Notes under the pieces: model-generated
What the model saw: only the letters and a program-made list of their open reading frames with translations
Databases searched by the model: none
What the model was told of the DNA's origin: nothing
From: an uncultured Methanosarcinales archaeon
GTDB taxonomy: Archaea; Nanobdellota; Nanobdellia; Woesearchaeales; GW2011-AR4
Assembly: GCA_964650285.1 (NCBI GenBank)
Contig: CAZYSP010000004.1
Location: 354-64,353 of the forward strand
Reading direction: 5' to 3'
Length of the DNA: 64,000 bases
Shown here: piece by piece, positions 18,759-50,781 of the stretch
Position numbering within the stretch: the stretch's first letter is position 1
How the letters are laid out: each line of letters starts with the position of its first letter
Made by a program: the position numbers and the translations under genes

Positions 18759-19832
18759 ATGATTTCACATAAAAAGTATATTGATATTGCTATAAAGCTG
18801 GCTGAGAAAGGCAGAGGCTATGTAAGTCCGAACCCTCTTGTTGGATGTATAATTGTTAAGAGGGGCAAGATTGTAGGCCGTGGTTATCATAAAAAATACG
18901 GGGAAGAGCATGCAGAAATAAATGCTTTAAAAGCAGCTGGAAAAAAGGCAAATAACGCAACCATGTACGTTAACATTGAGCCTTGTTCTCACTGGGGAAA
19001 AACCAGCCCATGCACAGAAAAAATTGTTGAAGCTGGCATCAGGGAAGTTATTGTGGGAGTAGAAGACCCCAACCCCTTAGTGGATGGGTATAAAGAATTA
19101 AAATTCCGTGGCCTAAAAACAAGAATAGGCATTTTAAGGGACAAAGCAAAAAAACTAAATGAAGCTTATATAAAGTATACAAAGACAAAAAAGCCTTTTG
19201 TAATCCTGAAATTGGCTATGAGCCTTGATGGGAAAATAGCAACCTCTAGTGGTGATTCAAAATACATAACATCCAGGGCAGCTAGAAAATATGTGCATCA
19301 GCTAAGAAATGATGTTGATGCTGTTATGGTTGGAATAAATACAATTACAAGAGATAACCCAATGCTGGATTCAAGGCTTGTCAAAGGAAAAAATCCTAAA
19401 AAGATAGTAGTTGACTCAAGCTTAAAAATATCAGAAAGATCAAAAATTCTTAAAGAACCAAGCAAAGTCATAATTGCAACAACAAAAAAAGCACCCAGAA
19501 AAAAGATAGATAAATTACAGCATAAAGGTGCTAGGATAATAATATTAAATCCAAAAAAAGGGCTGGTTGATTTGAAAGAACTGGCAAAAGAGCTCGGAAA
19601 ATCTGAAATAGCATCTGTTATGATAGAAGGAGGCGCAGAATTAAGCGGAAACGCTATAAAAGAAGGAATTGTAGACAAGCTTTTGATATTTACTGCACCA
19701 AAGATAATTGGCAATGGTTTAGGGCCAATAAAAAATCTGGGCATTAAAAAAGTCAACAAAGCCATCAAGCTAAAGAACATTTTAACAAAAAAGATAGGAA
19801 AGGACTTTCTGGTAGAGGGAAATTTAAAATAA
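18759..19832 (+). CDS. ribD: Bifunctional riboflavin deaminase/reductase
   Basis: PNPLVG, HAE, EPCSHWGKTSPC, SLDGKIA, IEGG. Confidence 0.97.
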   Translation: MISHKKYIDIAIKLAEKGRGYVSPNPLVGCIIVKRGKIVGRGYHKKYGEEHAEINALKAAGKKANNATMYVNIEPCSHWGKTSPCTEKIVEAGIREVIVGVEDPNPLVDGYKELKFRGLKTRIGILRDKAKKLNEAYIKYTKTKKPFVILKLAMSLDGKIATSSGDSKYITSRAARKYVHQLRNDVDAVMVGINTITRDNPMLDSRLVKGKNPKKIVVDSSLKISERSKILKEPSKVIIATTKKAPRKKIDKLQHKGARIIILNPKKGLVDLKELAKELGKSEIASVMIEGGAELSGNAIKEGIVDKLLIFTAPKIIGNGLGPIKNLGIKKVNKAIKLKNILTKKIGKDFLVEGNLK

Positions 19833-19856
19833 AAAAAGAGTTTTGTCAAATAAATA

Positions 19857-20008
19857 GAGCCAAGTTATTTCTAATATAGGGGAGGTGGGTGGGAAAAATC
19901 ACCAAATGATATTAATTAAAATGTTGTGTATCATAACCAAATAATATCTACAAAATGATATTAAGATGCAACATTTTGTCTAAAGTCCGCTCTGGCATAG
20001 CTTGGCTT
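19857..20008 (+). ncRNA. Unknown structured RNA/element, copy 1
   Basis: Closing stem GAGCCAAGTTAT/ATAGCTTGGCTT; GGGGAGGTGGGTGGG (19879-19893); N20; AATTAAAATG...CATTTTG; CTAAAGTCCGCTCTGGCA. Confidence 0.7.
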
Positions 20009-20078
20009 AATGTCAAATTAATCGATAAGCTCATAAAAAAAGAAAACTATAAAAACCCCCTATTTAAACTACAAACAG

Positions 20079-20741
20079 ATGGAATTCAGCAAAATAAAAG
20101 ACGTTATTAATGACATTAAAAGAGGAAAGTTTGTCATTGTGGTGGATGATGAAAACAGGGAAAACGAAGGTGACCTAGTTCTTGCCGCTTCAAAGGTAAC
20201 AGCCAATAAGATAAATTACATGATAAAATATGCCCGTGGTTTAGTGTGCATGCCGATTATAAGAGAAAGATTAGAGCAATTGGGTATACCTGCAATGGTA
20301 AATCATAAAGAAATCAATAGATGCATGTTTTCTATACCTATAGATTACAAAAACGGAACAACAACTGGAATTTCCCCAGCTGACAGAGCTGCTACAATAA
20401 GTGCTTTAGTTAATGAAAATACAAAAAATGAAGACTTTGCTAAGCCTGGACATTTATTCCCTATAATATACAAAGACGGTGGTGTTTTAGTAAGAGAGGG
20501 TCATACAGAAGCATCTGTTGATTTAGCTCGTTTAGCAGGATTATATCCTGCAGCTGTAATATGCGAAGTAATAAATGATGATGGAAGCATGGCAAAACTT
20601 CCTGACTTAATTGAATTCTCAAAGAAGCATAACAATATGAAGATTGTTACTATTAAAGATTTGGTTGATTATATAAAAAATAATCCTGATGCTAGTAAGG
20701 CAGAAGAGCAGAGTGTAGTTCTAGATACTGCAAATCAATAA
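20079..20741 (+). CDS. ribB: 3,4-dihydroxy-2-butanone 4-phosphate synthase
   Basis: DDENRENEGD, TTGISPADR, PGHLFP, REGHTEA, CEV...DDGSMA. Confidence 0.97.
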   Translation: MEFSKIKDVINDIKRGKFVIVVDDENRENEGDLVLAASKVTANKINYMIKYARGLVCMPIIRERLEQLGIPAMVNHKEINRCMFSIPIDYKNGTTTGISPADRAATISALVNENTKNEDFAKPGHLFPIIYKDGGVLVREGHTEASVDLARLAGLYPAAVICEVINDDGSMAKLPDLIEFSKKHNNMKIVTIKDLVDYIKNNPDASKAEEQSVVLDTANQ

Positions 20742-20774
20742 GCTTTATAAATCGATATTCTTTACCACTACCTT

Positions 20775-21137
20775 ATGGGAGTTAAATTAATATTATCCAT
20801 TTTATTTGTAATCGGATTATTTTTAATAGTTAGTTGTACTTCTGAACCAAAAGTAGAGCCATCTGTGCCAACAATATACATAGCAGGAGCAGTTGAAGAA
20901 CCTCAAGTAAAAACTTTTGTTGTTGGAGAAGAAAATTCCTTGTCATGGATTGAAGAGACAAAAGAAAAAAGGCACGAATTAAACATGATAAGATATTCTG
21001 AAGAATATGAAGATGAACTTGAAGAATTTGAGCTCAAAAGCAGACTAAAAAACGTAAGAAGATCTGTTGATAATGAATTAATTGTTGGGTTTGATGACGA
21101 GCTCGATAATCCAAGGTGGAAGGAAGTGGGTTCTTGA
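20775..21137 (+). CDS. Hypothetical lipoprotein
   Basis: Hydrophobic N-terminus ending LIVSC (lipobox-like). Confidence 0.6.
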   Translation: MGVKLILSILFVIGLFLIVSCTSEPKVEPSVPTIYIAGAVEEPQVKTFVVGEENSLSWIEETKEKRHELNMIRYSEEYEDELEEFELKSRLKNVRRSVDNELIVGFDDELDNPRWKEVGS

Positions 21138-21147
21138 GTGTATAAAA

Positions 21148-22140
21148 ATGATATATTCGTTAGTTAAATCTACAATACAACATTTCAATCCAGGCCTAAT
21201 AAGTAGAACGTTAAGAGAAGTGAGACTGGGGGCAGCAATATCGTTAACACTTAATTATGTAGCTCAAGAATATAGTATATATAAACAAAACAAAGATAAC
21301 AGAATATCCCCAACACTCATACAGCTTGAACTTACAACATATTGTCCTTGGAGATGCAAAGGTTGTTATATGCCTGTAGAAGAAAGAAAAGACAAAAAAG
21401 TAATTGATTTAGAAACAGCACACAAAGCTGTTCAGAAAGGAATTTCTTGGGGAATTAGGAATTTCAATCTAATTGGGGGAGAGACCATAAGTAGGGATAC
21501 TGTACCTGTTATTGAAAGTTTAATTACAGAATATCCTTCATTGAGTTTCCATTGTTGTACAAATGGAATTTATTTATCTTCACAAAATGAGGAATTAGAT
21601 GATATTGTTTTGAGGAATAACCTTAATATAGGGTTAAGTATAGATGGATTTAAGGAGACAAATGATGCTATAAGAGGCAAAAATTCGTATAGAAGTGTTA
21701 TTTCAGCCGCAGAATATTTAAGTTCAAGAAGATCCCTTTATGGAGCTACTGTAACATTAGGACCAGAGAATATTGAAGAAGTTACATCTGAAGAATTCAT
21801 GGATTTTCTGATATCCCATAGATTCCATTATGTAACATATGGCATTTCTCATAAAGTCGATCATGCCTCATGCAGCAATGCTCTTGAAGCATTAAAGTCA
21901 TTAAGAAAAAAACCAATCTTTATTTATATTAATTCACTAGGTCATATAGACGATTTATCCCCGCTAAAAAGAGATAGGCTAATTTCTGTTGATAAGCGTG
22001 GTAAAATTCTTAACGACAGGGGAGAAAGAATACCTATTGCAGATCTTGATACAGATATAGAGGATATAGTTTCAAGTAAAGATTGGAAAAAAAGATTTAC
22101 TTTAGAGTGGGCATTACACTCGAATAAAGAATCTAATTAA
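21148..22140 (+). CDS. Radical SAM protein
   Basis: CPWRCKGC (CxxxCxxC), GGE, TNG, SIDG; start moved to ATG 21148. Confidence 0.88.
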   Translation: MIYSLVKSTIQHFNPGLISRTLREVRLGAAISLTLNYVAQEYSIYKQNKDNRISPTLIQLELTTYCPWRCKGCYMPVEERKDKKVIDLETAHKAVQKGISWGIRNFNLIGGETISRDTVPVIESLITEYPSLSFHCCTNGIYLSSQNEELDDIVLRNNLNIGLSIDGFKETNDAIRGKNSYRSVISAAEYLSSRRSLYGATVTLGPENIEEVTSEEFMDFLISHRFHYVTYGISHKVDHASCSNALEALKSLRKKPIFIYINSLGHIDDLSPLKRDRLISVDKRGKILNDRGERIPIADLDTDIEDIVSSKDWKKRFTLEWALHSNKESN

Positions 22141-25430: not shown

Positions 25431-25685
25431 ATGGAACCAGAACTAAAAAATTTTACAGACAATGTAGATGCCTGGATAAAGCAGATAAGAAAGGAATTTA
25501 CAAATTTTTCAGATATACCTAATGTTGTTAGTGAGAACACTGATAATGTACAACACAATTATGAGCTCATATACGAGCTAAAAGACCAGATAGAAGAGCT
25601 AAAGCAGGAAATAAACGCACTAAAACTTATCCAGATAATAAGCCTCAAGAAAAGCAAGCAAGAGCAGCATAAGAAGATCAGCTAA
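25431..25685 (+). CDS. Small coiled-coil hypothetical protein
   Basis: ORF with heptad pattern (NYELIYELKDQIEELKQEINALK). Confidence 0.7.
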   Translation: MEPELKNFTDNVDAWIKQIRKEFTNFSDIPNVVSENTDNVQHNYELIYELKDQIEELKQEINALKLIQIISLKKSKQEQHKKIS

Positions 25686-25986
25686 TCTCATTTACTATTT
25701 TCTTTAAAGCACTGTCTACAGCAACAAAAAGATTTCTTTCCACAACTTCAGAAACAATAGGCTTTCCATCATTTATAAGCTTTATATGTATTTCATACTT
25801 GCTGCTTTTTTCTGTTTCATGAACAGGCTTCATTGTAACACTTAACTTCTCAAACTTCTCAGAAATCTCAGACAATCTTCTGCCATAATTGCCTATTATT
25901 TTCTTTAACACAACCATAGAAGCGCCATCAATATCCCCAAAGCCGGAAAGCTCTATATTTCCGCCTAACTGTGTAGGTTCATCCAT
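25678..25986 (-). CDS. HPF/RaiA-like fold protein (paralog 1)
   Basis: Beta-alpha-beta-beta-beta-alpha pattern ending RNLFVAVDSALKKI, like the HPF C-terminal helix. Confidence 0.6.
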   Translation of the reverse strand: MDEPTQLGGNIELSGFGDIDGASMVVLKKIIGNYGRRLSEISEKFEKLSVTMKPVHETEKSSKYEIHIKLINDGKPIVSEVVERNLFVAVDSALKKIVNEIS

Positions 25987-26040
25987 AACAGCCCCCAAAC
26001 AAGCTATTCTTGGATTTGATGTTTAAATAGTTTTTGTTTT

Positions 26041-26187
26041 GATTAGCTGTGCCTAATTTAGGGGAGGTGGGTGGGAAAAATAAAGCAACGACTTCAATTA
26101 AAATGTTGTGTATCATAATCAAATGATATCTACAAGATGATATCAAGATGCAACATTTTGCCTAAAGTCCGCTCTGGCACAGCTATC
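26041..26187 (+). ncRNA. Unknown structured RNA/element, copy 2
   Basis: Closing stem TAGCTGTGCC/GGCACAGCTA; G-motif 26061-26075; N20 26076-26095; core 79/84 nt identical to copy 1. Confidence 0.7.
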
Positions 26188-26231
26188 GTCAATAACAAAA
26201 TATAAATACCAGCTAAAGAAATTCAAACTTT

Positions 26232-26561
26232 ATGGAGCCAATACAAATCATAGGGATAAAAGATCTAGATGAAATGGAAGTAGAGTCTATTAACAGGCTT
26301 GCCAACAGATATTATGGCAAAGTCCAGAGGGAAATTAAAAACATCACTTCTTTAGTGGTTCATATAAAGAGTATTAATAAAGAAGGAAGGCAGAAAATTT
26401 ATTCGGTCCATGTAAAAGTAATTGCTCCAACTAAAGTATTTGCTTCTACAAAAACAGAAGATTGGAATTTAGAGAAAGCATTACATGGCTCTTTTAGAAA
26501 TATTATAAGAGAAATGCAGCACAGACTGCATACAGACGATCAGCATGACAAAACCCGTTAA
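26232..26561 (+). CDS. HPF/RaiA-like fold protein (paralog 2)
   Basis: LVVHIK...YSVHVKV...DWNLEKALHGSFRNI pattern. Confidence 0.6.
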   Translation: MEPIQIIGIKDLDEMEVESINRLANRYYGKVQREIKNITSLVVHIKSINKEGRQKIYSVHVKVIAPTKVFASTKTEDWNLEKALHGSFRNIIREMQHRLHTDDQHDKTR

Positions 26562-27006
26562 TTCTAAAATTGCAACCTTATGCCAGATTGAAGGATTGAG
26601 TTGTTTCGGCTGCTGCGGAAATGATTACAGCCATAAAAAAAAGCTGATGAGAGACATAAGAAAAAATACATTTGAGTTCAAAAAAACTAATTCAGTTAGT
26701 TCTTTCATGACCAGAACTACAGACTTAAGATCTTCTGGTATTTGCGCTAATGTTGTTTTCAAAGATGGAAAATTTTTCTGCCCAGGACATCCTACATTGC
26801 ATTATGGCAGGGATTATAGGGAGATAGATCCGGATTGTGAAAGAGATAAAGATGACGGATGCAAAGCTTATATTTTATTTCAAAAGTGGAGCAAAGAAAA
26901 GCAAAAACAATTTCTGGATTTTATCAAATCAAAAAAACTGGATAGCTATATTTATTCTATAAAGATGGACAATAATTCTTTGCTGAAAGAGTTTGAGAAA
27001 AAATAG
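26545..27006 (+). CDS. Cys-rich protein, YkgJ-like Fe-S/Zn cluster candidate
   Basis: CQIEGLSCFGCC...C...CPGH...C...C. Confidence 0.6.
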   Translation: MTKPVNSKIATLCQIEGLSCFGCCGNDYSHKKKLMRDIRKNTFEFKKTNSVSSFMTRTTDLRSSGICANVVFKDGKFFCPGHPTLHYGRDYREIDPDCERDKDDGCKAYILFQKWSKEKQKQFLDFIKSKKLDSYIYSIKMDNNSLLKEFEKK

Positions 27007-27078
27007 CGGGGAGAAGATTTGAACTTCCGACCTGAGGGTTATGAGCCCTCCGGGCACTCCTGACTGCCCTACCCCGCT
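27004..27078 (-). tRNA. Initiator tRNA-Met(CAU)
   Basis: AGCGGGG start with A1-U72; GAGGG/CCCUC anticodon stem (three G-C pairs) around CU-CAU-AA. Confidence 0.95.
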
Positions 27079-35051: not shown

Positions 35052-35324
35052 TACTGCTACAAAGTCTCTACCACCCCTTTTTTGAATATGGAGAATATAA
35101 TTGGTAAATAAAGCTTTCGGATTTTAGGCTATTGAGTATACTTTTAAGTTAATTTATTAAATATCAATATATTCACAAAAAATATGCCTTATTTCCTGGA
35201 CATTGTTAAAAAATTAGAATATAAATCAGATAAACAAAGAAGAAATATAATCATTAATTTTTTAAACACTATTATTGGAGAATAAGATAAAGTTTAAATA
35301 TTTCTTTACTGGCAACACTATAAA

Positions 35325-36434
35325 ATGGCAATAAAAAAGATAAGAGAAGCCCTGGAAAAAAGAAGGCAGAGAAAAGCAGAGGAAATTGTTGAAAAAAATA
35401 AGCTTGAAAGCTACAGGGAAAATGAGCAGATGCAGAAAGCAGAGCAAATAAAAAAAGAAGCTGACAGGTTAGCTCATTTAAAGCAATACAAGACCGCAAT
35501 TGATGAGTACAACAAGGCTTTGGAAATCTACCCCTTTGATGAAAAAGAACAAATATTCAAAAAGTCTGCTGAGTTCTTCTTTAAGCTTTACTACAACATT
35601 GCAGCATCGTACTCTTTCCTGAATAAATTTGACGAATCAATAGGATATTTTAACACTGCTTTGAAAATAGAAAATATCGACGATGAGAATAAAGTTAAAG
35701 CATTAATGAGCAAGGGAAACTGCTACTATCGAGCAAAACAACTTGTTAAGGGAGACTATGAGGAAGGAGCCTATAAAATAAGAATGGAATCTGATTTTGA
35801 TGTTGACGAGAAAACAATAGAAACATTTAGAAAACTTGATGAAAAAGAGGGCTTGTTTAAGCTGGCTCATAACTGCTTTACAAAAACAACAGAGCTCGAC
35901 AGGCACAATGCAGATGCGTGGTACAAAAAAGGCCATATGGAATTTTTAATGGACCAGATTAAGGAAGCAATGCTTTCTTTTGACAATGTATTTGAGCTGC
36001 AAAAAAACTATGAAAACAAGGAAGGCATAGAGCTTTTTGATGATATAAGGTCAGAAAAGGGGATAAAAGCCAAGCATTTGAAAGTTCTTGATAGTGATAT
36101 GAAGTTCAAGACAAAAACAGGGCATTATGTCAGGGATAAAGCTGAGAAGATGATTGCTAATTTTATTTATGACAACAATTTGATGTTTCAATACAACATA
36201 GCTGTTACATGGGCAGACAAGGATGATTTTAAAGCAACTTTTTTCATTCCAAAGCTTGATTTGTACATAGAGCACTTTAAATTTGATAAAATCAAAGACT
36301 ACCAGAAACTGATAAGGTGGAAGATAAAGCAGTATGAAAAGAACAAAAAGAAGCTTGTTTACACAACATCTGAAGACGAAGCAAATATAGAAGAAGCCTT
36401 AAAAATCAAGTTAAAACCCTATACTGTGTTGTAA
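35325..36434 (+). CDS. TPR-repeat protein with C-terminal restriction-endonuclease-like domain
   Basis: TPR patterns (AIDEYNKALEI, AWYKKGH); C-terminal VRDKAEKMIANF...LYIEH. Confidence 0.72.
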   Translation: MAIKKIREALEKRRQRKAEEIVEKNKLESYRENEQMQKAEQIKKEADRLAHLKQYKTAIDEYNKALEIYPFDEKEQIFKKSAEFFFKLYYNIAASYSFLNKFDESIGYFNTALKIENIDDENKVKALMSKGNCYYRAKQLVKGDYEEGAYKIRMESDFDVDEKTIETFRKLDEKEGLFKLAHNCFTKTTELDRHNADAWYKKGHMEFLMDQIKEAMLSFDNVFELQKNYENKEGIELFDDIRSEKGIKAKHLKVLDSDMKFKTKTGHYVRDKAEKMIANFIYDNNLMFQYNIAVTWADKDDFKATFFIPKLDLYIEHFKFDKIKDYQKLIRWKIKQYEKNKKKLVYTTSEDEANIEEALKIKLKPYTVL

Positions 36435-38021: not shown

Positions 38022-38111
38022 CCAGATATAGAATTTTTAGAATGTATATAAGTTTTTCTAGATATACCCACTAAACAAAAACCTTTATAAAACCAAAATA
38101 CCTACTAGCTA

Positions 38112-38379
38112 TGGGCTAGGCTGGTGTACTGGTCCTACACTGTAACTCTAAACGGACCTTATGAGAGGGCTGAAGCCTGGAAAGAGGCATTTGCTTAGCT
38201 TAGTGGTCTTGATTTCAACGTTGAGGTTCTGTCCTCTTGGGCTGTATTTTTTGGAAATCAGTCAGGATGGGAACATAGCAGCTGTAACCTTTTGATATGG
38301 TGCTTAGGGGGTAGCGGAACTGAGGAGAAATCAAGGTAAGCTGCTTTGCTTTGCTTGTGTCCATTTCCAGGCGCGCCCA
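38112..38379 (+). ncRNA. Signal recognition particle RNA (apparently lacking helix 6)
   Basis: GGGCUAGGC 5' end, UGUAA Alu motif, GGUCC/GGACC loop-loop pairing, helix 5 arms CCUGGAAA/UUUCCAGG, helix 8 CAGG-AUG-GGAA-CAU-AGCAG; TATA at about 38085. Confidence 0.92.
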
Positions 38380-38421
38380 CTTATTTTTCTGATTAGGCAT
38401 TATAAAAATACAAAGAAAAAA

Positions 38422-45071: not shown

Positions 45072-46171
45072 AACATCTTACCCAAAAACCCTTTTTTCTT
45101 CTTGTTTCCTTTTTCAAATTCCTTAAGAAGTTCTTTCTGTTTTTTGCTTAATTTTTCAGGTACTTCAATAACAACCTCAACATTTTCATTTCCAGTGCCA
45201 TGACCATGTAGATAAGGTACGCCTTTTCCTTTCATTCTAAAAATAGTATTATTTTGCGTGCCAGCAGGTATTTTTAACTTGGCCTTTTCATCTAATGTAG
45301 GAACTTCTATTTCCCCACCTAAAGCTGCTATAGTAAATGGTATTGGTACTTTAATGTAGATATCATCACCATGCCTTTCAAATATTTCATGCTCTTTTAC
45401 ATGAATTATGATGTATAAGTCACCAGGTTCTGCACCTTTTTCTCCTGCTTCACCTTCCTCAACAATCCTTAAATTTGTCCCTTCTTCTGCCCCTGTTGGA
45501 ACTTTAACTTCAAGCTTCCTGGTTTTTTTAACAACTCCAGTACCATCGCAAACTGCACATTCTTTCTTTATGTATTTTCCCTGGCCGCGGCATTTGCCGC
45601 AGGTTGTTGTTGTAGAGAACATTCCAAATGGTGTCCTTTGCGTTCTTCTTTGCATTCCAGAGCCGTTGCACTCAGGACAGTTTACAATATCTGCATCGCT
45701 TTCAGCACCAGAGCCATGGCATTTTGAACAGGACTCTAATCTTGGGATAATAATATGCTTTGCTACACCTTTAGCAGCCTCTTCCAGAGTAATTTCCAAA
45801 TCATACCTTAAATCAGCTCCTCTTCTAGGTCCTCTTCTTCTTGAGCCAAACTGCCTTCCTCCGAAAAAACTTTCAAATATGCTGTCAAAATCAAAACCAC
45901 CTCCAAAATCAGACATTATATCGCTAAAGTCAAAGCCTTCAAAGCCCTTGAACTGGTCTGCAGTTGTGCCGTACTGGTCGTATTGTGTTCTTTTCTGGTC
46001 GTCAGCAAGAACAGCAGCAGCTTCATTTATTTCCTTGAACTTATCAGCAGAATCCTCTTCCTTATTCAAATCAGGATGATATTTTTTAGCCAGCTTCTTG
46101 TAGGCTTTCTTTATTTCCTCCTTGGTCGCGTTCTTACCTACGCCTAGTATTTTGTAATAGTCTTTTGGCAT
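45068..46171 (-). CDS. dnaJ: Chaperone DnaJ
   Basis: HPD J-domain, four CxxCxGxG repeats. Confidence 0.98.
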
Positions 46172-46753: not shown

Positions 46754-48670
46754 TTATTTTTTCTTTTTCTTTTTATCATCATCTTCCACTTTGTACTCTG
46801 CATCAACTACTTTGTCATCTTTCTTTTCACTCCCAGAACCTGCAGAAGCTCCTGCTTGTTTGCCTTGCTGTTGCTTCTTAGCCTGCTCCTGTGCAACTTT
46901 TTGGTACATCTCTGTTGACATTTTCTGGACTAACTGGTTAACCTCATCCATTTTTGCCTTTATTGCTGCAATATCTTTCTTTTCTTGCTTCAACAGCTCT
47001 TTCAATTCCATTCTTTTTCCTTTCACTGTCTCAAGCTCTTTGCTGTCAACCTTGCCCTCAAACTCCTTGAAGAGCTTTTCAGTTGAATAGACCAGCGCAT
47101 CTGCATTATTGACGGTTTCCACTTGCTCTTTTCTTTTCTTATCTTCATCAGCATGTTTTTCTGCATCTTCTTGCATCTTAGCAATTTCTTCATCTGAAAG
47201 ATTTGTTGAAGCTACAATTTTAACTGATTGTTCCTTTCCTGTTCCTAAATCCTTTGCTGAAACATTTACAATACCATTTGCATCAATATCAAATGTAACT
47301 TCAATTTGAGGAACTCCTCTTGGAGCTGGAGGTAATCCTTCTAGATTAAATGAACCAATAACTTTATTGTCATTAAACATTGCTCTCTCTCCTTGACCTA
47401 CTCTAATTGTTACAGCTGATTGATTATCTTCAGCTGTTGAATACACTTGAGATTTCTTTGTTGGAATTGTTGTATTCTTATCAATCATTTTTGTGAAAAC
47501 TCCACCAAGTGTTTCAATACCAAGTGTTAATGGTGTTACATCAAGCAATAAGATGTCCTTGACTTCTCCGGCTAAAACTCCTGCCTGTATTGCTGCACCT
47601 TGGGCAACACATTCCATTGGATCAACACCACGCTCTACCTTTTTACTAACAAAATCTTCTACAAATTTCCTTACAATAGGCATTCTTGTTGGACCGCCTA
47701 CAAGAATTATCTTGTTTATGTCTTTTGATGTCAATTTAGAGTCTTTCAATGCCTGCTCCATTGGATGCTTGCATTTCTGTATAATTAGCTCTACAAGCTG
47801 CTCTAACTTTGACCTTGCAAGCTTCATGCTTAAGTGTTTTGGACTGTCGTTAACAGAAGTTATGAAAGGAATATTGATATCTGTTTCAAGTGTTGTAGAT
47901 AACTCAATTTTTGCTTTTTCTGTAGCCTCTCTTAAGCGCTGCATAGCTGTGTCATCCTCACTTAAATCAATTCCTTCCTTATTTTTAAAGTCCTCAATAA
48001 TGAATTTCATCAATGCTTCGTCCATATCTGTTCCGCCTAGTTGTGTGTCTCCAGAAGTAGCTTTAACTTCAAAAACTCCTTCAGAAAAATCCATTATTGT
48101 AACATCTAGTGTTCCGCCGCCAAAGTCAAATACAAGAATTTTTAGTTCCTTATCCATCTTGTCTAGGCCGTAAGCCATTGAGGCTGCTGTTGGCTCATTG
48201 ACTAATCTAACAACTTCCAAACCTGCTATAGTACCAGCATCTTTTGTAGCCTGTCTTTGGTTGTCATCAAAATAGGCTGGTACTGTTATGACTGCCTTCT
48301 TTATTGGTTCTCCTACAAATTCTTCTGCATCCTTCTTTATTTTTTGTAGAATAAATGCTGAGATTTGCTGTGGAGAGTATTTTTTGCCATTTATTTTGTA
48401 CTCAAAGCTCTTTCCCATCTTTCTTTTTGCAACAGTTATTGTGCCTTGAGGATTGCTTACAGCTTGTCTTCTTGCTGGCTCTCCCACTAACATTTGCCCG
48501 TCTTTTGTAAATGCAACTACACTAGGAAATGCTTTTCCGTAAGCAGTTGTGCCTTCTGCACTGGGTATAATTGTGGGTTTGCCTGCTTGCAAAACAGAAG
48601 CAGCACTGTTGCTTGTACCCAAATCTATTCCAATAATTTTTTCTTTCTTCATTTTTGTTTTTTCAGCCAT
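46754..48670 (-). CDS. dnaK: Chaperone DnaK
   Basis: [34 protein letters not shown]. Confidence 0.99.
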
Positions 48671-48777
48671 TTTTACATCACCATTAGTTTTATTTTTTTA
48701 TTTTTTTAATCAATATTTTTTAATTTGAAATTATTGTTTTTATTACTGTAAATTTTTGAATTGGAATTTTTCTGTTG

Positions 48778-49308
48778 TTATTTTAATAATTCAAAACTTA
48801 ATATTTTCTTTAACTTCTCTTTATCAGGAACTAAATCCTTTAATTCAGCTCCTCTTAGTGTTTTTCCGCCACTTTTCAGGTAAGTTGCATACTGTCTTAA
48901 ACTCTCTGGGTCATTTTCATTTACAAAATGGTTAAGCATAAACCACAAACTTAATTGCTCACCATAGTCTTTGCATCCCATTGCAACTTTACATTCCAAT
49001 GGTTTTGCTTCATGTATTCTGCATCTGATTTCTTGATCAAAAAAGGCGCATTTTCCATATGGTTTGTGTTTCTTCAGTATTCTTGGTCTGTATTTTTTTG
49101 TGTTAAATTTCTCAACTTCTTCTAAAAATTCTTTTTTCAAAACCTCTTCTGTTATCCCTAAATGTTTTGCAATTCTTGAAATGTCATCATTAACTAAAAA
49201 GCCGCTACCATATTTGCATCCATTAGTGCATGCCTCGCATTTGCATGCATGCACAAGCTTCAAAACCTCTTCTACAGGAGTGTTTTTTGTTAAATTTATT
49301 TTTTTCAA
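48778..49308 (-). CDS. YkgJ-family cysteine cluster protein
   Basis: CKCEACTNGC, CAFF...CRIHEAKPLEC. Confidence 0.8.
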   Translation of the reverse strand: MKKINLTKNTPVEEVLKLVHACKCEACTNGCKYGSGFLVNDDISRIAKHLGITEEVLKKEFLEEVEKFNTKKYRPRILKKHKPYGKCAFFDQEIRCRIHEAKPLECKVAMGCKDYGEQLSLWFMLNHFVNENDPESLRQYATYLKSGGKTLRGAELKDLVPDKEKLKKILSFELLK

Positions 49309-49337
49309 TCAAATACCTCTTTACATTGTTTATTTGC

Positions 49338-49440
49338 TATTTTCTAAGTTCACAATTATTTGTTTAGTTATTTTTTATTTTACACATAATACTATTTCGG
49401 CATTGAAATTATTTTTAATAAATAATCATCGTTAGCGATG
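49338..49440 (-). repeat. AT-rich dispersed intergenic repeat, copy A
   Basis: 24-bp AAATAATTGTGAACTTAGAAAATA identical to 57133-57156; flanks also align. Confidence 0.75.
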
Positions 49441-49493
49441 CAAATTGTTTGGTTTTTGTTTTTAATATAAATTTTTATTATTGGAAAATTTTT

Positions 49494-50060
49494 TTATTTT
49501 TTATTATTGTTACTTTCTTTTTTCTCTTCTATTTTTTCATTAATCTTGACTTTGCTGTGCCTCAAAACCTTTCCATTAAGCATATAGCCTTTTTGCAGTT
49601 CTTCCAAAACAATATTTTCATCCTTATCGGATTTTTCCTTTAACATTACTTCATGCAAATAAGGATCAAACTTTTTTCCCAATGCTTCAATTGGTCTTAC
49701 TCCTTCTGACTCCAAAATTGAAAACAACTGAACATAAACAATCTCCATACCCTTTACGAATTTTTCCTTGTCATTAGTGTTTTTTAATGCGATTTCAAAG
49801 GTGTCAATTATTGACAATAATTTTTGAATAAGCTCTGCTTTGGCATATTTTACAAACTCTCCTTTTTCCTTATCTACTCTTTTTCTATAGTTTTCAAATT
49901 CTGCCTGTGTTCTTTGCAGTGTTTCTGTAAGCTCTATAATAATCTCTTTTTCTGTTGGTTTTTTTGCTTTTTGTTGTTTTTTTTCTTTTAACTTTTCATC
50001 TTCCTTTGTTTCTTTCGCTTGCTCTTTTTTTACTTCTTTTTCCATTTTTATTATTTCCAT
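49494..50060 (-). CDS. grpE: Nucleotide exchange factor GrpE
   Basis: AEFENYRKR, FDPYLHE, LQKGY..NGKVLR. Confidence 0.96.
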   Translation of the reverse strand: MEIIKMEKEVKKEQAKETKEDEKLKEKKQQKAKKPTEKEIIIELTETLQRTQAEFENYRKRVDKEKGEFVKYAKAELIQKLLSIIDTFEIALKNTNDKEKFVKGMEIVYVQLFSILESEGVRPIEALGKKFDPYLHEVMLKEKSDKDENIVLEELQKGYMLNGKVLRHSKVKINEKIEEKKESNNNKK

Positions 50061-50144: not shown

Positions 50145-50243
50145 GAAACTATGGTAACATCAACTTATATTTAAATATTTCTGTTCTAGAGTATATAAAT
50201 AAGCAAAACATTAATAAATAAGTGTATCTTTAAGGGTTTTATC

Positions 50244-50365
50244 GGGCTTTGCCAGAGCGGACTTTAGTCAAAATGGGCATTTTTAAAAAACAAAAAATGC
50301 AAGCATTTTAATTGCACATTTAGCCTGATTCTACCCACCCACCTCCCCTAAAATTGGCAAAGCCC
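50244..50365 (-). ncRNA. Unknown structured RNA/element, copy 3
   Basis: Perfect 11-bp closing stem GGGCTTTGCCA/TGGCAAAGCCC; G-motif (rc 50334-50348), N20, shortened inner stem, CTAAAGTCCGCTC. Confidence 0.7.
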
Positions 50366-50367
50366 AG

Positions 50368-50781
50368 ATGTTTAAAATGAGATACGTACACAAAATAACA
50401 ATAATGAACCTAAGGAAGCCTGTGCATAAGAATGTTAACCAGGAACTGCAATGGTTGGGGAGTTCTTTAGGCTTGTTTAATTTAAGGGATAAGGATAAAA
50501 GTTGTTTTAGGGTTTTTATTGAACTGGTTAAGAATGCAAAAAAAGGTGTTCCCTTGTCAAGCGACGAATTGGCTTACAAACTTGGTTTAAGCAGAGGTAC
50601 AGTTATCCATCATATTAACAAATTACTTGATTCAGGTATTGTCGTGCAGGTTCATAAAGGCTATATTCTAAGGGTTGGAACTTTAAGAGAACTAATAGAC
50701 GAGGTTGAAAAAGATCTTAGAAGGACATGCGACGACTTAAAAAAGATGGCAGAAGAGATTGATCAGAGTTTAGGGCTTTGA
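50368..50781 (+). CDS. Winged-helix transcriptional regulator (TrmB/ArsR-like)
   Basis: SSDELAYKLGLSRGTVIHHINKLLDSGIV. Confidence 0.82.
   Translation: MFKMRYVHKITIMNLRKPVHKNVNQELQWLGSSLGLFNLRDKDKSCFRVFIELVKNAKKGVPLSSDELAYKLGLSRGTVIHHINKLLDSGIVVQVHKGYILRVGTLRELIDEVEKDLRRTCDDLKKMAEEIDQSLGL

Follow-up and report, generated by a model that had tools for sequence, protein, structure and literature searches.

The G-rich motif GGGGAGGTGGGTGGG, found on a 64,000-nucleotide stretch of an uncultured Woesearchaeales contig (CAZYSP010000004.1; this whole stretch is the window), is no free-standing signal but one strand of a larger structured element, which measures 124-144 nucleotides (nt) in the window. 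Comparison with homologs suggests a lineage-restricted mobile structured element that resembles a miniature inverted-repeat transposable element (MITE) and whose fold is the selected feature, a reading that we hold with modest confidence. Because the genomes of DPANN archaea are tiny and contain little non-coding DNA, a multicopy, conserved non-coding element of 100-180 nt is notable. Its asymmetric core of G-tract and pyrimidine strand stays constant across lineages whose neighbouring proteins share only 70-80% identity.

The motif and the element around it

The initial annotation had described an invariant motif at 26061-26075, with further copies, that is built of four G-tracts with 1-nt loops and is followed by no suitably spaced start codon. 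The location on the forward strand and two further sites are confirmed, as are the four tracts and their 1-nt loops, and no ATG, GTG or TTG is conserved 5-10 nt downstream in the window copies or their homologs; the only GTG codons nearby overlap the motif itself and are lost in homologs with a T-to-C change. The invariance holds for the three window copies, which are identical, but not for the homologs, in which the loop bases vary, and the annotated unit, although real, left out the larger structured, dispersed and apparently mobile element that surrounds it. The window is AT-rich (31-34% GC) and contains the 9-mer GGGAGGTGG exactly at 19880(+), 26062(+) and 50347(-) and with one mismatch at 45897(-), within the dnaJ coding sequence; these four matches, against 2.75 expected, do not exceed chance. 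The two-block pattern GGAGGTGGGTGGG-N60-90-AAGTCCGCTCTGG, by comparison with 100 shuffles in which it never appeared, occurs three times. All three exact sites share TAGGGGAGGTGGGTGGG, a 20-nt spacer, AATTAAAATG with a hairpin and CATTTTG, and N-CTAAAGTCCGCTCTGGC, and these blocks are enclosed by a stem whose sequence differs from copy to copy while its complementarity is kept.

Across the family, the element is about 95-180 nt long and its parts follow one order (Table 1). The closing stem P1 leads through a short junction into the G-tract (GGGG-N-GG-Y-GGG-Y-GGG); the 20-nt spacer and the AU-rich stem P2, which may be extended, come next, then a pyrimidine-rich strand with the consensus (C-U-N-N-A-G)UCCGCUCU and, last, the second arm of P1. 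P1 spans 8-15 bp in nearly all copies, which thus carry terminal inverted repeats, and eight of its ten modelled pairs show compensatory changes across 43 copies, a result that none of 500 shuffles matched; double-sided changes include GCUGUGCC/GGCACAGC, GCUUUGCC/GGCAAAGC and GUCUAUGUC/GACAUAGAC. P1 holds 16 G:U pairs as opposed to seven A:C pairs, and P2 folds better on the G-rich (sense) strand in 26 of the 34 informative copies and on the other strand in eight. Because of the G:U excess and the sense-strand stability of P2, a modest signal taken together, the G-rich strand would be the selected single-stranded form, most simply RNA.

The distal part of P2 ranges from a UAGU tetraloop in the 97-nt elements (L015:1868-1964, L009, L055:8292-8388) to an extension of about 55 nt, which when long has a conserved internal loop of its own, and variants of the 3' strand outside the window are mostly C/U transitions. 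An extra hairpin inside the 3' strand defines 'type B' copies (L024, L025, L042, L095, two in L005, and L009b), and in L139 an extra hairpin lies in the 5' junction instead. No small open reading frame (ORF) is conserved on either strand of the element.

Table 1. Positions of the element copies, their parts and the genes beside copy 2 in the window, and direct repeats that flank copies in the window and in relatives.
Feature	Position	Strand	Remarks
Copy 2, full length	26043..26186	+	covariance-model match 159 bits, E 3e-36
P1 5' arm TAGCTGTGCC, closing stem / terminal inverted repeat	26044..26053	+	pairs with 26176-26185
G-tract strand GGGGAGGTGGGTGGG	26061..26075	+	same in 3 window copies; four GG tracts in 42/43 homologs
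Spacer, fixed at 20 nt, sequence variable	26076..26095	+	length constant even in copies found by the 3' motif only
AAUU and P2 hairpin (invariant AAAAU/AUUUU base, variable distal part), then G and N	26096..26161	+	
Pyrimidine-rich 3' strand CUAAAGUCCGCUCU	26162..26175	+	same in 3 window copies
P1 3' arm GGCACAGCTA	26176..26185	+	partner of the 5' arm
Copy 1, inserted unit between ribD and ribB	19852..20010	+	covariance match 19861-20004, 145 bits; neighbours by Pfam
Copy 1, sub-parts	G-tract 19879-19893; 3' strand 19980-19996	+	
Left flanking direct repeat of copy 1, TGTCAAAT	19844..19851	+	candidate target-site duplication
Right flanking direct repeat of copy 1, TGTCAAAT	20011..20018	+	symmetric distance from P1; shuffle p ~0.07
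Copy 3, short-P2 variant	50243..50366	-	G-tract 50348-50334; 3' strand 50267-50254; covariance match 120 bits
Copy 3, location	between wHTH gene 50368-50781(+) and grpE-dnaK-dnaJ(-)		from ORFs
HPF-like gene 1	25678..25998	-	106-aa protein; weak PF02482 and TIGR00741 / S30AE/YfiA matches, E 0.002-0.003
HPF-like gene 2	26232..26561	+	109-aa protein; own TATA-like box 26200-26208
Flanking direct repeat, L015			TATTGTTAAT; shuffle p 0.001
Flanking direct repeat, L085			AGCAATTCG; shuffle p 0.002
Flanking direct repeat, L073			TACACAAAA; shuffle p 0.003
Flanking direct repeat, L005			CATCAGAG(A); shuffle p 0.016

Distribution of the family

A covariance model run with its filters off finds exactly three copies in the window, at 120-159 bits. 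When the 3' strand alone (CTAAAGTCCGCTCTGGC) was scanned against 185,579 species-representative genomes, 16 matches were obtained, of which seven are chance matches in GC-rich bacteria and nine are real; the latter all lie in Woesearchaeota/'Nanoarchaeota' metagenome-assembled genomes (MAGs) or in a 33%-GC bin labelled Methanosarcinales, and each has the G-rich strand at the expected distance. A metagenome scan with the pattern AGGG-N1-2-GG-N-RGG-N-RGG-N20-AAWTAAAAT, which left the loop bases and the 3' strand free, returned at least 118 stretches, and the real ones among the matches listed are all on contigs of 29-38% GC. Covariance model R1 collected at least 58 occurrences, at least 43-45 of them distinct, including copies beyond the reach of either pattern (L005:1102-1279, L009:1282-1405 and L139). 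Conservation is counted here over 43 distinct copies and over an unbiased subset of 15 that were retrieved with no constraint on the G strand.

Among the matches listed, all true ones are on DPANN contigs of 31-38% GC, and contigs with the element come from marine samples such as the TARA assemblies CEPV, CEPX and CEQE and Ga0187833/Ga0066859. Copy number is low, with three copies in the window and at least five in each of two relatives' assemblies; contig L005 carries three inside 7.4 kb. A search of the whole window against Rfam 15 at gathering threshold gave no element match, and at E<=10 copy 2, a type-B copy and the L085 subfamily yielded nothing above noise. Three pattern scans of IMG/VR viral contigs yielded no match, and a literature search for a described DPANN G-rich RNA or MITE found nothing relevant. 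On these comparisons, the element is a previously undescribed and unannotated family that is limited to a narrow clade of AT-rich, marine-type Woesearchaeota/'Nanoarchaeota' DPANN.

Apparent insertion into intergenic DNA

The roughly 28 distinct loci that were classified have neither a consistent neighbour nor a consistent orientation. Between co-directional genes, the element lies in sense at seven loci and in antisense at four, seven further loci are divergent regions and three are convergent; because its orientations to the neighbours are mixed, a dedicated 5' or 3' untranslated-region element is ruled out. The neighbours range from ribD/ribB, grpE-dnaK-dnaJ, a PF0610-like winged helix-turn-helix (wHTH)/Zn-ribbon regulator, an alpha/beta hydrolase, riboflavin kinase and Memo/AMMECR1 to RNase P p30, Dph5, UPF0047, DUF2304, a nucleotidyl (NTP-)transferase, S19e, Cdc6, PCNA, TBP and FtsY.

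Several sites can be compared with and without the element. In the most recurrent one, the hydrolase gene is followed by the element and then by the PF0610-like gene, whose ATG lies 8-13 nt after P1; five lineages have this site filled, by different subtypes, and L148-L152 and L153-L155 have it empty, the last three with a PF0610-like protein of 87% identity. The cdc6 site is empty in L143. The site at the dph5 3' end holds the element in sense in L033, L055 and L052 and, between the same flanks, inverted in L030.

A scan for flanking direct repeats, which let the true ends fall a few bases outside P1 and required symmetric distances, detected repeats of 8-10 bp at five copies (Table 1); three of these reach p<=0.003 in about 38 tests, compared with about 0.1 expected by chance. 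The mobile unit can exceed the conserved core, because in L005 the 9-bp repeat CATCAGAGA brackets a longer unit that includes an outer inverted repeat. Such outer inverted repeats beyond P1 are found in L005/L013 and in L085, and the stretches L005:2660-2870 and L013:4935-5119, which belong to one MAG, have a 14-bp outer inverted repeat in common (GGCTGCGTTCAAAA / TTTTGAAYGCAGCC). The 5' and 3' halves are always at most 180 nt apart in about 60 occurrences, and a long-range search for paired arms of an autonomous element returned noise only. As such, the alignments show an element that behaves as an insertion into intergenic DNA, with unrelated neighbours, either orientation, empty orthologous sites and, in some cases, repeats of about 9 bp.

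Several observations weigh against a mobile, MITE-like element with a selected fold and have to be set beside this evidence. A target-site duplication is invisible in most copies, including copy 2 despite its known empty site, the element termini outside P1 have no shared consensus, and no transposase, reverse transcriptase or autonomous partner was found among the approximately 60 occurrences. Conservation is, furthermore, reversed relative to a usual MITE, with an invariant core and variable inverted repeats, which speaks against a simple MITE in particular. Near-all copies have an intact core, only L009:1282-1405 being clearly degenerate, and because the core is intact nearly everywhere, a host function at each locus fits better than decaying selfish copies. 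The covariation of P1 could equally reflect terminal inverted repeats that co-evolve at the DNA level. Finally, the metagenome pattern fixed most G positions, so that only 15 copies are unbiased for the G-tract strand.

Some of these observations are what would be expected of a family of host small RNA (sRNA) genes that have their own promoters, act in trans or as a scaffold for ribonucleoproteins or ligands, and are gained and lost rather than transposed, an account that we regard as possible if doubtful. Hardly any copy has a damaged core, whereas P1, the spacer and distal P2 have diverged; the stems covary, and the sense strand is biased towards G:U. At the four loci where the element is antisense to both neighbours, a promoter of its own would be needed, and in many divergent or antisense contexts a good TATA-like box precedes P1 by about 24-44 nt, with T-runs after P1 in about half of the copies. 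However, no promoter element sits at a fixed distance, close relatives keep the flanking genes and lack the element, direct repeats flank some copies and one locus is inverted in place; the density of copies on L005 would also be unusual for a classical sRNA gene.

The same contexts bear on a cis-regulatory RNA, namely a riboswitch, thermometer or quadruplex/helix switch that would act on downstream genes for stress (HPF-like, grpE-dnaK-dnaJ) or flavins (ribB, ribK). In the window, a co-directional gene follows all three copies, in five lineages the ATG of the PF0610-like regulator comes 8-13 nt after the element, flavin-related neighbours (ribD/ribB, riboflavin kinase, nitroreductase) recur at some loci, and two mutually exclusive folds are conceivable. 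Yet only about two thirds of the loci have a co-oriented downstream gene, which is convergent or antisense at about one third of distinct loci, the downstream genes are functionally unrelated, as those of a riboswitch would not be, and relatives do without the element. A separate TATA-like box between copies 1 and 2 and the respective ATG, which for copy 2 is also present at the empty site, suggests leaderless mRNAs, and we consider cis-regulation very unlikely.

The HPF-like neighbours of copy 2

The initial annotation had drawn attention to the position of copy 2 between divergent HPF/RaiA-like genes, and both genes can indeed be assigned to this group, the upstream one from weak profile matches and the downstream one from its predicted fold. 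Gene 2 encodes a member of a Woesearchaeota protein family in which 27 of 38 members match PF02482, and its AlphaFold model (pLDDT 85) has the order beta-alpha-beta-beta-beta-alpha, with template-modelling (TM) scores of 0.6-0.7 to solved HPF/PSRP1 structures; in a fold search of the PDB with this model, the top matches were HPF/PSRP1/YfiA structures only.

The proposal that the element might be linked to HPF-like genes in relatives does not hold in general. Across 11 lineages (the window, L070 with 82% identity, and nine orthologs at 49-73%), the element adjoins the HPF-like gene in the window, L070 and L139 (72%) only, and the gene stands without it in the other eight (L135, L138, L141, L143, L144, L145, L146 and L147); 143 kb of ortholog-bearing relatives hold a single element, that of L139. 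Seen from the side of the element, the HPF gene pair accounts for three of the roughly 28 distinct loci. L141 and L142 offer an empty site with the copy-2 flanks intact, TTTAAATA-N-TTTTTGTTTTGAT followed by TYGTYAAYAA...ATATAAATA-N23-ATG, in which both promoter-like boxes are present. Since these lineages keep the same flanks without the element, copy 2 appears to be an insertion between two pre-existing promoters, and it is not a conserved partner of the HPF-like genes.

Two further observations concern the HPF-like genes themselves. A divergent pair of two different small HPF/S30AE-like proteins is kept in many Woesearchaeota contigs (the window, L141, L144 and others), and such bacterial-type hibernation-factor folds in archaea may merit study by themselves. 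Upstream of the HPF-like gene, element-free lineages have other GC-rich, hairpin-forming sequences (L145:9880-9990, for example GCGTGACACCCCGTAGGGGGCAACCCCTGTCACGC; L147:9900-9960; L138:5990-6040), and this region is either a hot spot for GC-rich insertions or the site of another structured RNA.

Quadruplex, helix or ribosome-binding sequence

The archaeal 16S rRNA 3' end carries the anti-Shine-Dalgarno sequence AUCACCUCCU, with which GGGAGGUGG can pair over 9 bp. On this basis, the initial annotation had proposed a Shine-Dalgarno (SD) decoy, an RNA that could bind or sequester 30S subunits. Such an RNA would pair with the 16S 3' end and act alongside the HPF-like proteins, and the recurrence of the arrangement between two HPF-like genes in L070 and L139 is in its favour. 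The bases that would pair are, however, not conserved: GGGAGGTGG, with its GGAGGTG core, is kept in 15 of 43 copies (6 of 15 unbiased), and GGAGG, kept in 36 of 43 (12 of 15 unbiased), is absent in seven. The motif would furthermore not be single-stranded if folded as a quadruplex or a helix, and the linkage to HPF-like genes is as sparse as described above. The genome also makes little use of SD sequences; GGAGG lies upstream of none of the 63 window ORFs and GGTG upstream of about five, and many window ORFs have a TATA-like box about 27 nt (25-30) before the ATG and no SD, which suggests leaderless mRNAs. The few window genes with SD sequences of the GGTG type are operon-internal. We therefore regard a decoy as extremely improbable, and the SD likeness appears, from the comparison of copies, to be an incidental by-product of the G-tract composition.

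The annotation's other suggestion, a G-quadruplex (G4), fares better in the comparison. Of the 43 copies, 42 have four GG tracts with loops of at most 3 nt (as do 14 of the 15 unbiased ones), although tract lengths are reshuffled. The variable positions of the G strand are A5 (A/U), Y8 (C/U) and Y12 (C/U), and all G losses fall on tract edges (G4, G9, G11, G13); no copy has lost the two-G tract (G6, G7) or a middle G (G10, G14). Shifted tracts are seen in GGGGUGGGAGGUGGG (L085), GGGAUGGGAGGCGGG (L090), GGGUGGCAGGCAGG (L008), GGGGGAGGUGGAUGGG (L139) and GGGAAGGUGGGCGGG (L031); the GG-only tract moves position in L085 and L090, and L008 and L139 have 2-nt loops. Because edge-only loss and reshuffling fit a quadruplex and not anti-SD pairing, a two-layer quadruplex is favoured over the latter, tract 2 with its two Gs permitting at most two full layers. 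With G4 energies included, ViennaRNA places a quadruplex on the motif in the predicted minimum-energy fold of most copies.

A competing 9-bp helix between G3G4(A5)G6G7Y8G9G10G11Y12 and GUCCGCUCU, which is compatible in 92-98% of cells, counts against the quadruplex. This G:Y helix would account for the pyrimidine loop positions. Its variation is almost wholly one-sided (G-C to G-U), both double changes come from one subfamily, and four of the seven G-to-A events sit opposite a C. The predicted quadruplex is the better supported of the two, and overall we judge it about equally likely to be right or wrong. A quadruplex/helix switch, as initially envisaged, is conceivable because the two folds are mutually exclusive; its quadruplex half draws support from the comparison and its helix half from compatible pairing. 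A GGGG/GG-CUCU/CC helix obtained with RNAalifold from three sequences and the longer helix H3 are compatible and show no real covariation.

Comparison with known systems

Structured intergenic repeats that are transcribed in bacteria (ERIC/IRU, Correia/NEMIS, RUP, BOX and REPIN) and archaeal MITEs provide the closest frame of reference. Like them, the element is 100-180 bp long, has terminal inverted repeats that close a hairpin, and lies in intergenic DNA in or between operons in either orientation; it also shows patchy copy number in close relatives, extra segments at fixed internal sites, flanking repeats and empty orthologous sites. Unlike a typical MITE, its inverted repeat varies and covaries around an invariant asymmetric core of G-tract and pyrimidine strand, its copy number is low, no partner transposase was found, and only five copies show a target duplication.

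RNA quadruplex cores are known from aptamers selected in vitro, such as Spinach, Mango and Corn, and a riboflavin aptamer contains G-quartets. The canonical RNA G-quadruplex motif is given as (G>=2 N1-7)x4 (PMC13501134). The element shares with these the four short G-tracts with 1-2-nt loops between helices and the conservation of tracts rather than loop identity. It differs from the aptamers in that its quadruplex is a predicted one, would have at most two layers and has a Watson-Crick/wobble alternative, and no ligand is implied by its contexts. A flavin aptamer, suggested by copy 1 between ribD and ribB and by riboflavin kinase downstream in L073, was dropped, as about three of 28 contexts are flavin-related.

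The raiA motif RNA (RF03072) is described as a bacterial non-coding RNA beside HPF/raiA genes (PMC10861870). Copy 2 is likewise a structured element immediately upstream of a gene of the hibernation-factor family. The raiA motif is, however, bacterial and not archaeal, the element matches it in neither sequence nor structure at E<=10, and its HPF association is one of about 28 insertion sites and is not conserved in relatives; identity with the raiA motif or the flavin mononucleotide (FMN) riboswitch was rejected, neither being matched in Rfam.

The combination of conserved junction strands, covarying optional stems, multiple copies, patchy phylogeny and unrelated neighbourhoods also recalls twister, pistol and hatchet, and the element might accordingly be a small self-cleaving ribozyme or self-processing RNA carried on a mobile element, with the junction strands as catalytic core and the stems interchangeable. 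In contrast to these ribozymes, it does not match their models or resemble any other Rfam ribozyme, and its conserved core, of about 45 nucleotides, is above the typical size of small ribozymes; we consider this identity distinctly unlikely.

Other candidates were tried and rejected. An H/ACA or C/D guide RNA lacks support because there is no ACA/ANA box after P1, there are no C/D boxes, and orthologous loci do not share the sequence of the variable spacer; the tandem G.A positions needed for a kink-turn in the core are absent or not conserved. A promoter cassette, with AATTAAAAT as TATA box and the 20-nt spacer, is inconsistent with half of the contexts, and the TTGAT target of IS200/IS605-type elements is present at the HPF site only. 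Derivation from 5S rRNA or signal recognition particle (SRP) RNA was likewise rejected, the SRP RNA showing no relation. Derivation from RNase P RNA was considered because AAAGUCCG resembles its conserved region CR-I; this likeness is probably a coincidence, and a normal RNase P RNA adjoins the element in L099. There, and also in L108, about 40 nt separate an element copy from the start of a probable RNase P RNA downstream of it (L099:7035-7380, GAGGAAAGTCCACCCACC... with ...GGTGGCTTATTCTGGCCC at its end).

Proposed mechanism and implications

Taken together, the data are compatible with a model in which the element, either MITE-like and mobile or a small RNA that is retroposed, enters intergenic DNA with a duplication of about 9 bp. 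What selection keeps would be the fold that the G-rich strand adopts, most probably as RNA. Within this fold, the G-tract would form a two-layer parallel quadruplex stacked between P1 and P2 or else pair with the 3' strand, and the fold would be recognised by a mobilising or host factor. The position beside the HPF-like genes would, in turn, be one insertion site among many. A bolder version, which we think rather unlikely, would make this the first natural, evolutionarily conserved RNA family with a quadruplex as structural core, that is, a compact P1-G4-P2 module that binds a ligand or protein or processes itself as a ribozyme and spreads through DPANN as a mobile element at the RNA level, with the quadruplex and the G:Y helix as two possible switch states.

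If the G-tract does fold as a quadruplex, it would provide rare comparative support for a natural RNA quadruplex in a defined tertiary scaffold. The quadruplex-type pattern of G-tracts is a conserved feature that merits a biophysical test, and the 97-nt minimal variants make the idea directly testable. During annotation, elements of this kind can pass for ribosome-binding sites, riboswitches or sRNA genes. As markers of recent insertions, they are also useful for strain-level population genomics of uncultured Woesearchaeota.

Other features of the window and its relatives

Copy 1 lies in a bacterial-type riboflavin cluster (18759-22140, +), in which ribD (deaminase and reductase), the element and ribB (3,4-dihydroxy-2-butanone 4-phosphate (DHBP) synthase) are followed by an ORF of 120 aa and a radical-SAM protein. 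That so reduced a DPANN-type genome has riboflavin genes is notable in itself. Copy 3 fills the gap between an Lrs14/ArsR-like wHTH gene and the divergent grpE-dnaK-dnaJ genes (46754-50060, -), and because the wHTH start codon is 1 nt from P1, the promoter of this gene would have to lie inside the element. Only two RNAs of the window are recognised by Rfam, an Archaea_SRP RNA (38109-38382, +; 126 bits) and a tRNA-Met (27004-27078, -), and they identify the organism as an archaeon.

In L046:1100-1300, the ortholog (89% identity) of the window gene at 35325 is immediately preceded by a UPF0047 gene and an element copy. At 35150-35290, the window itself has neither and retains the same promoter-proximal flank (GATAAAGTTTAAATATTTC...) together with a 14/15-nt match to the end of the UPF0047 gene, which looks like a rearrangement breakpoint at the edge of the element. 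Downstream of the element in L085 (40-120, -), GC-rich hairpins GCCCCTCTTCAGG...CCTGGAGAGGGGGC and GGTGGAG...CTCCACC stand right before an ATG and may be an unrelated leader structure.

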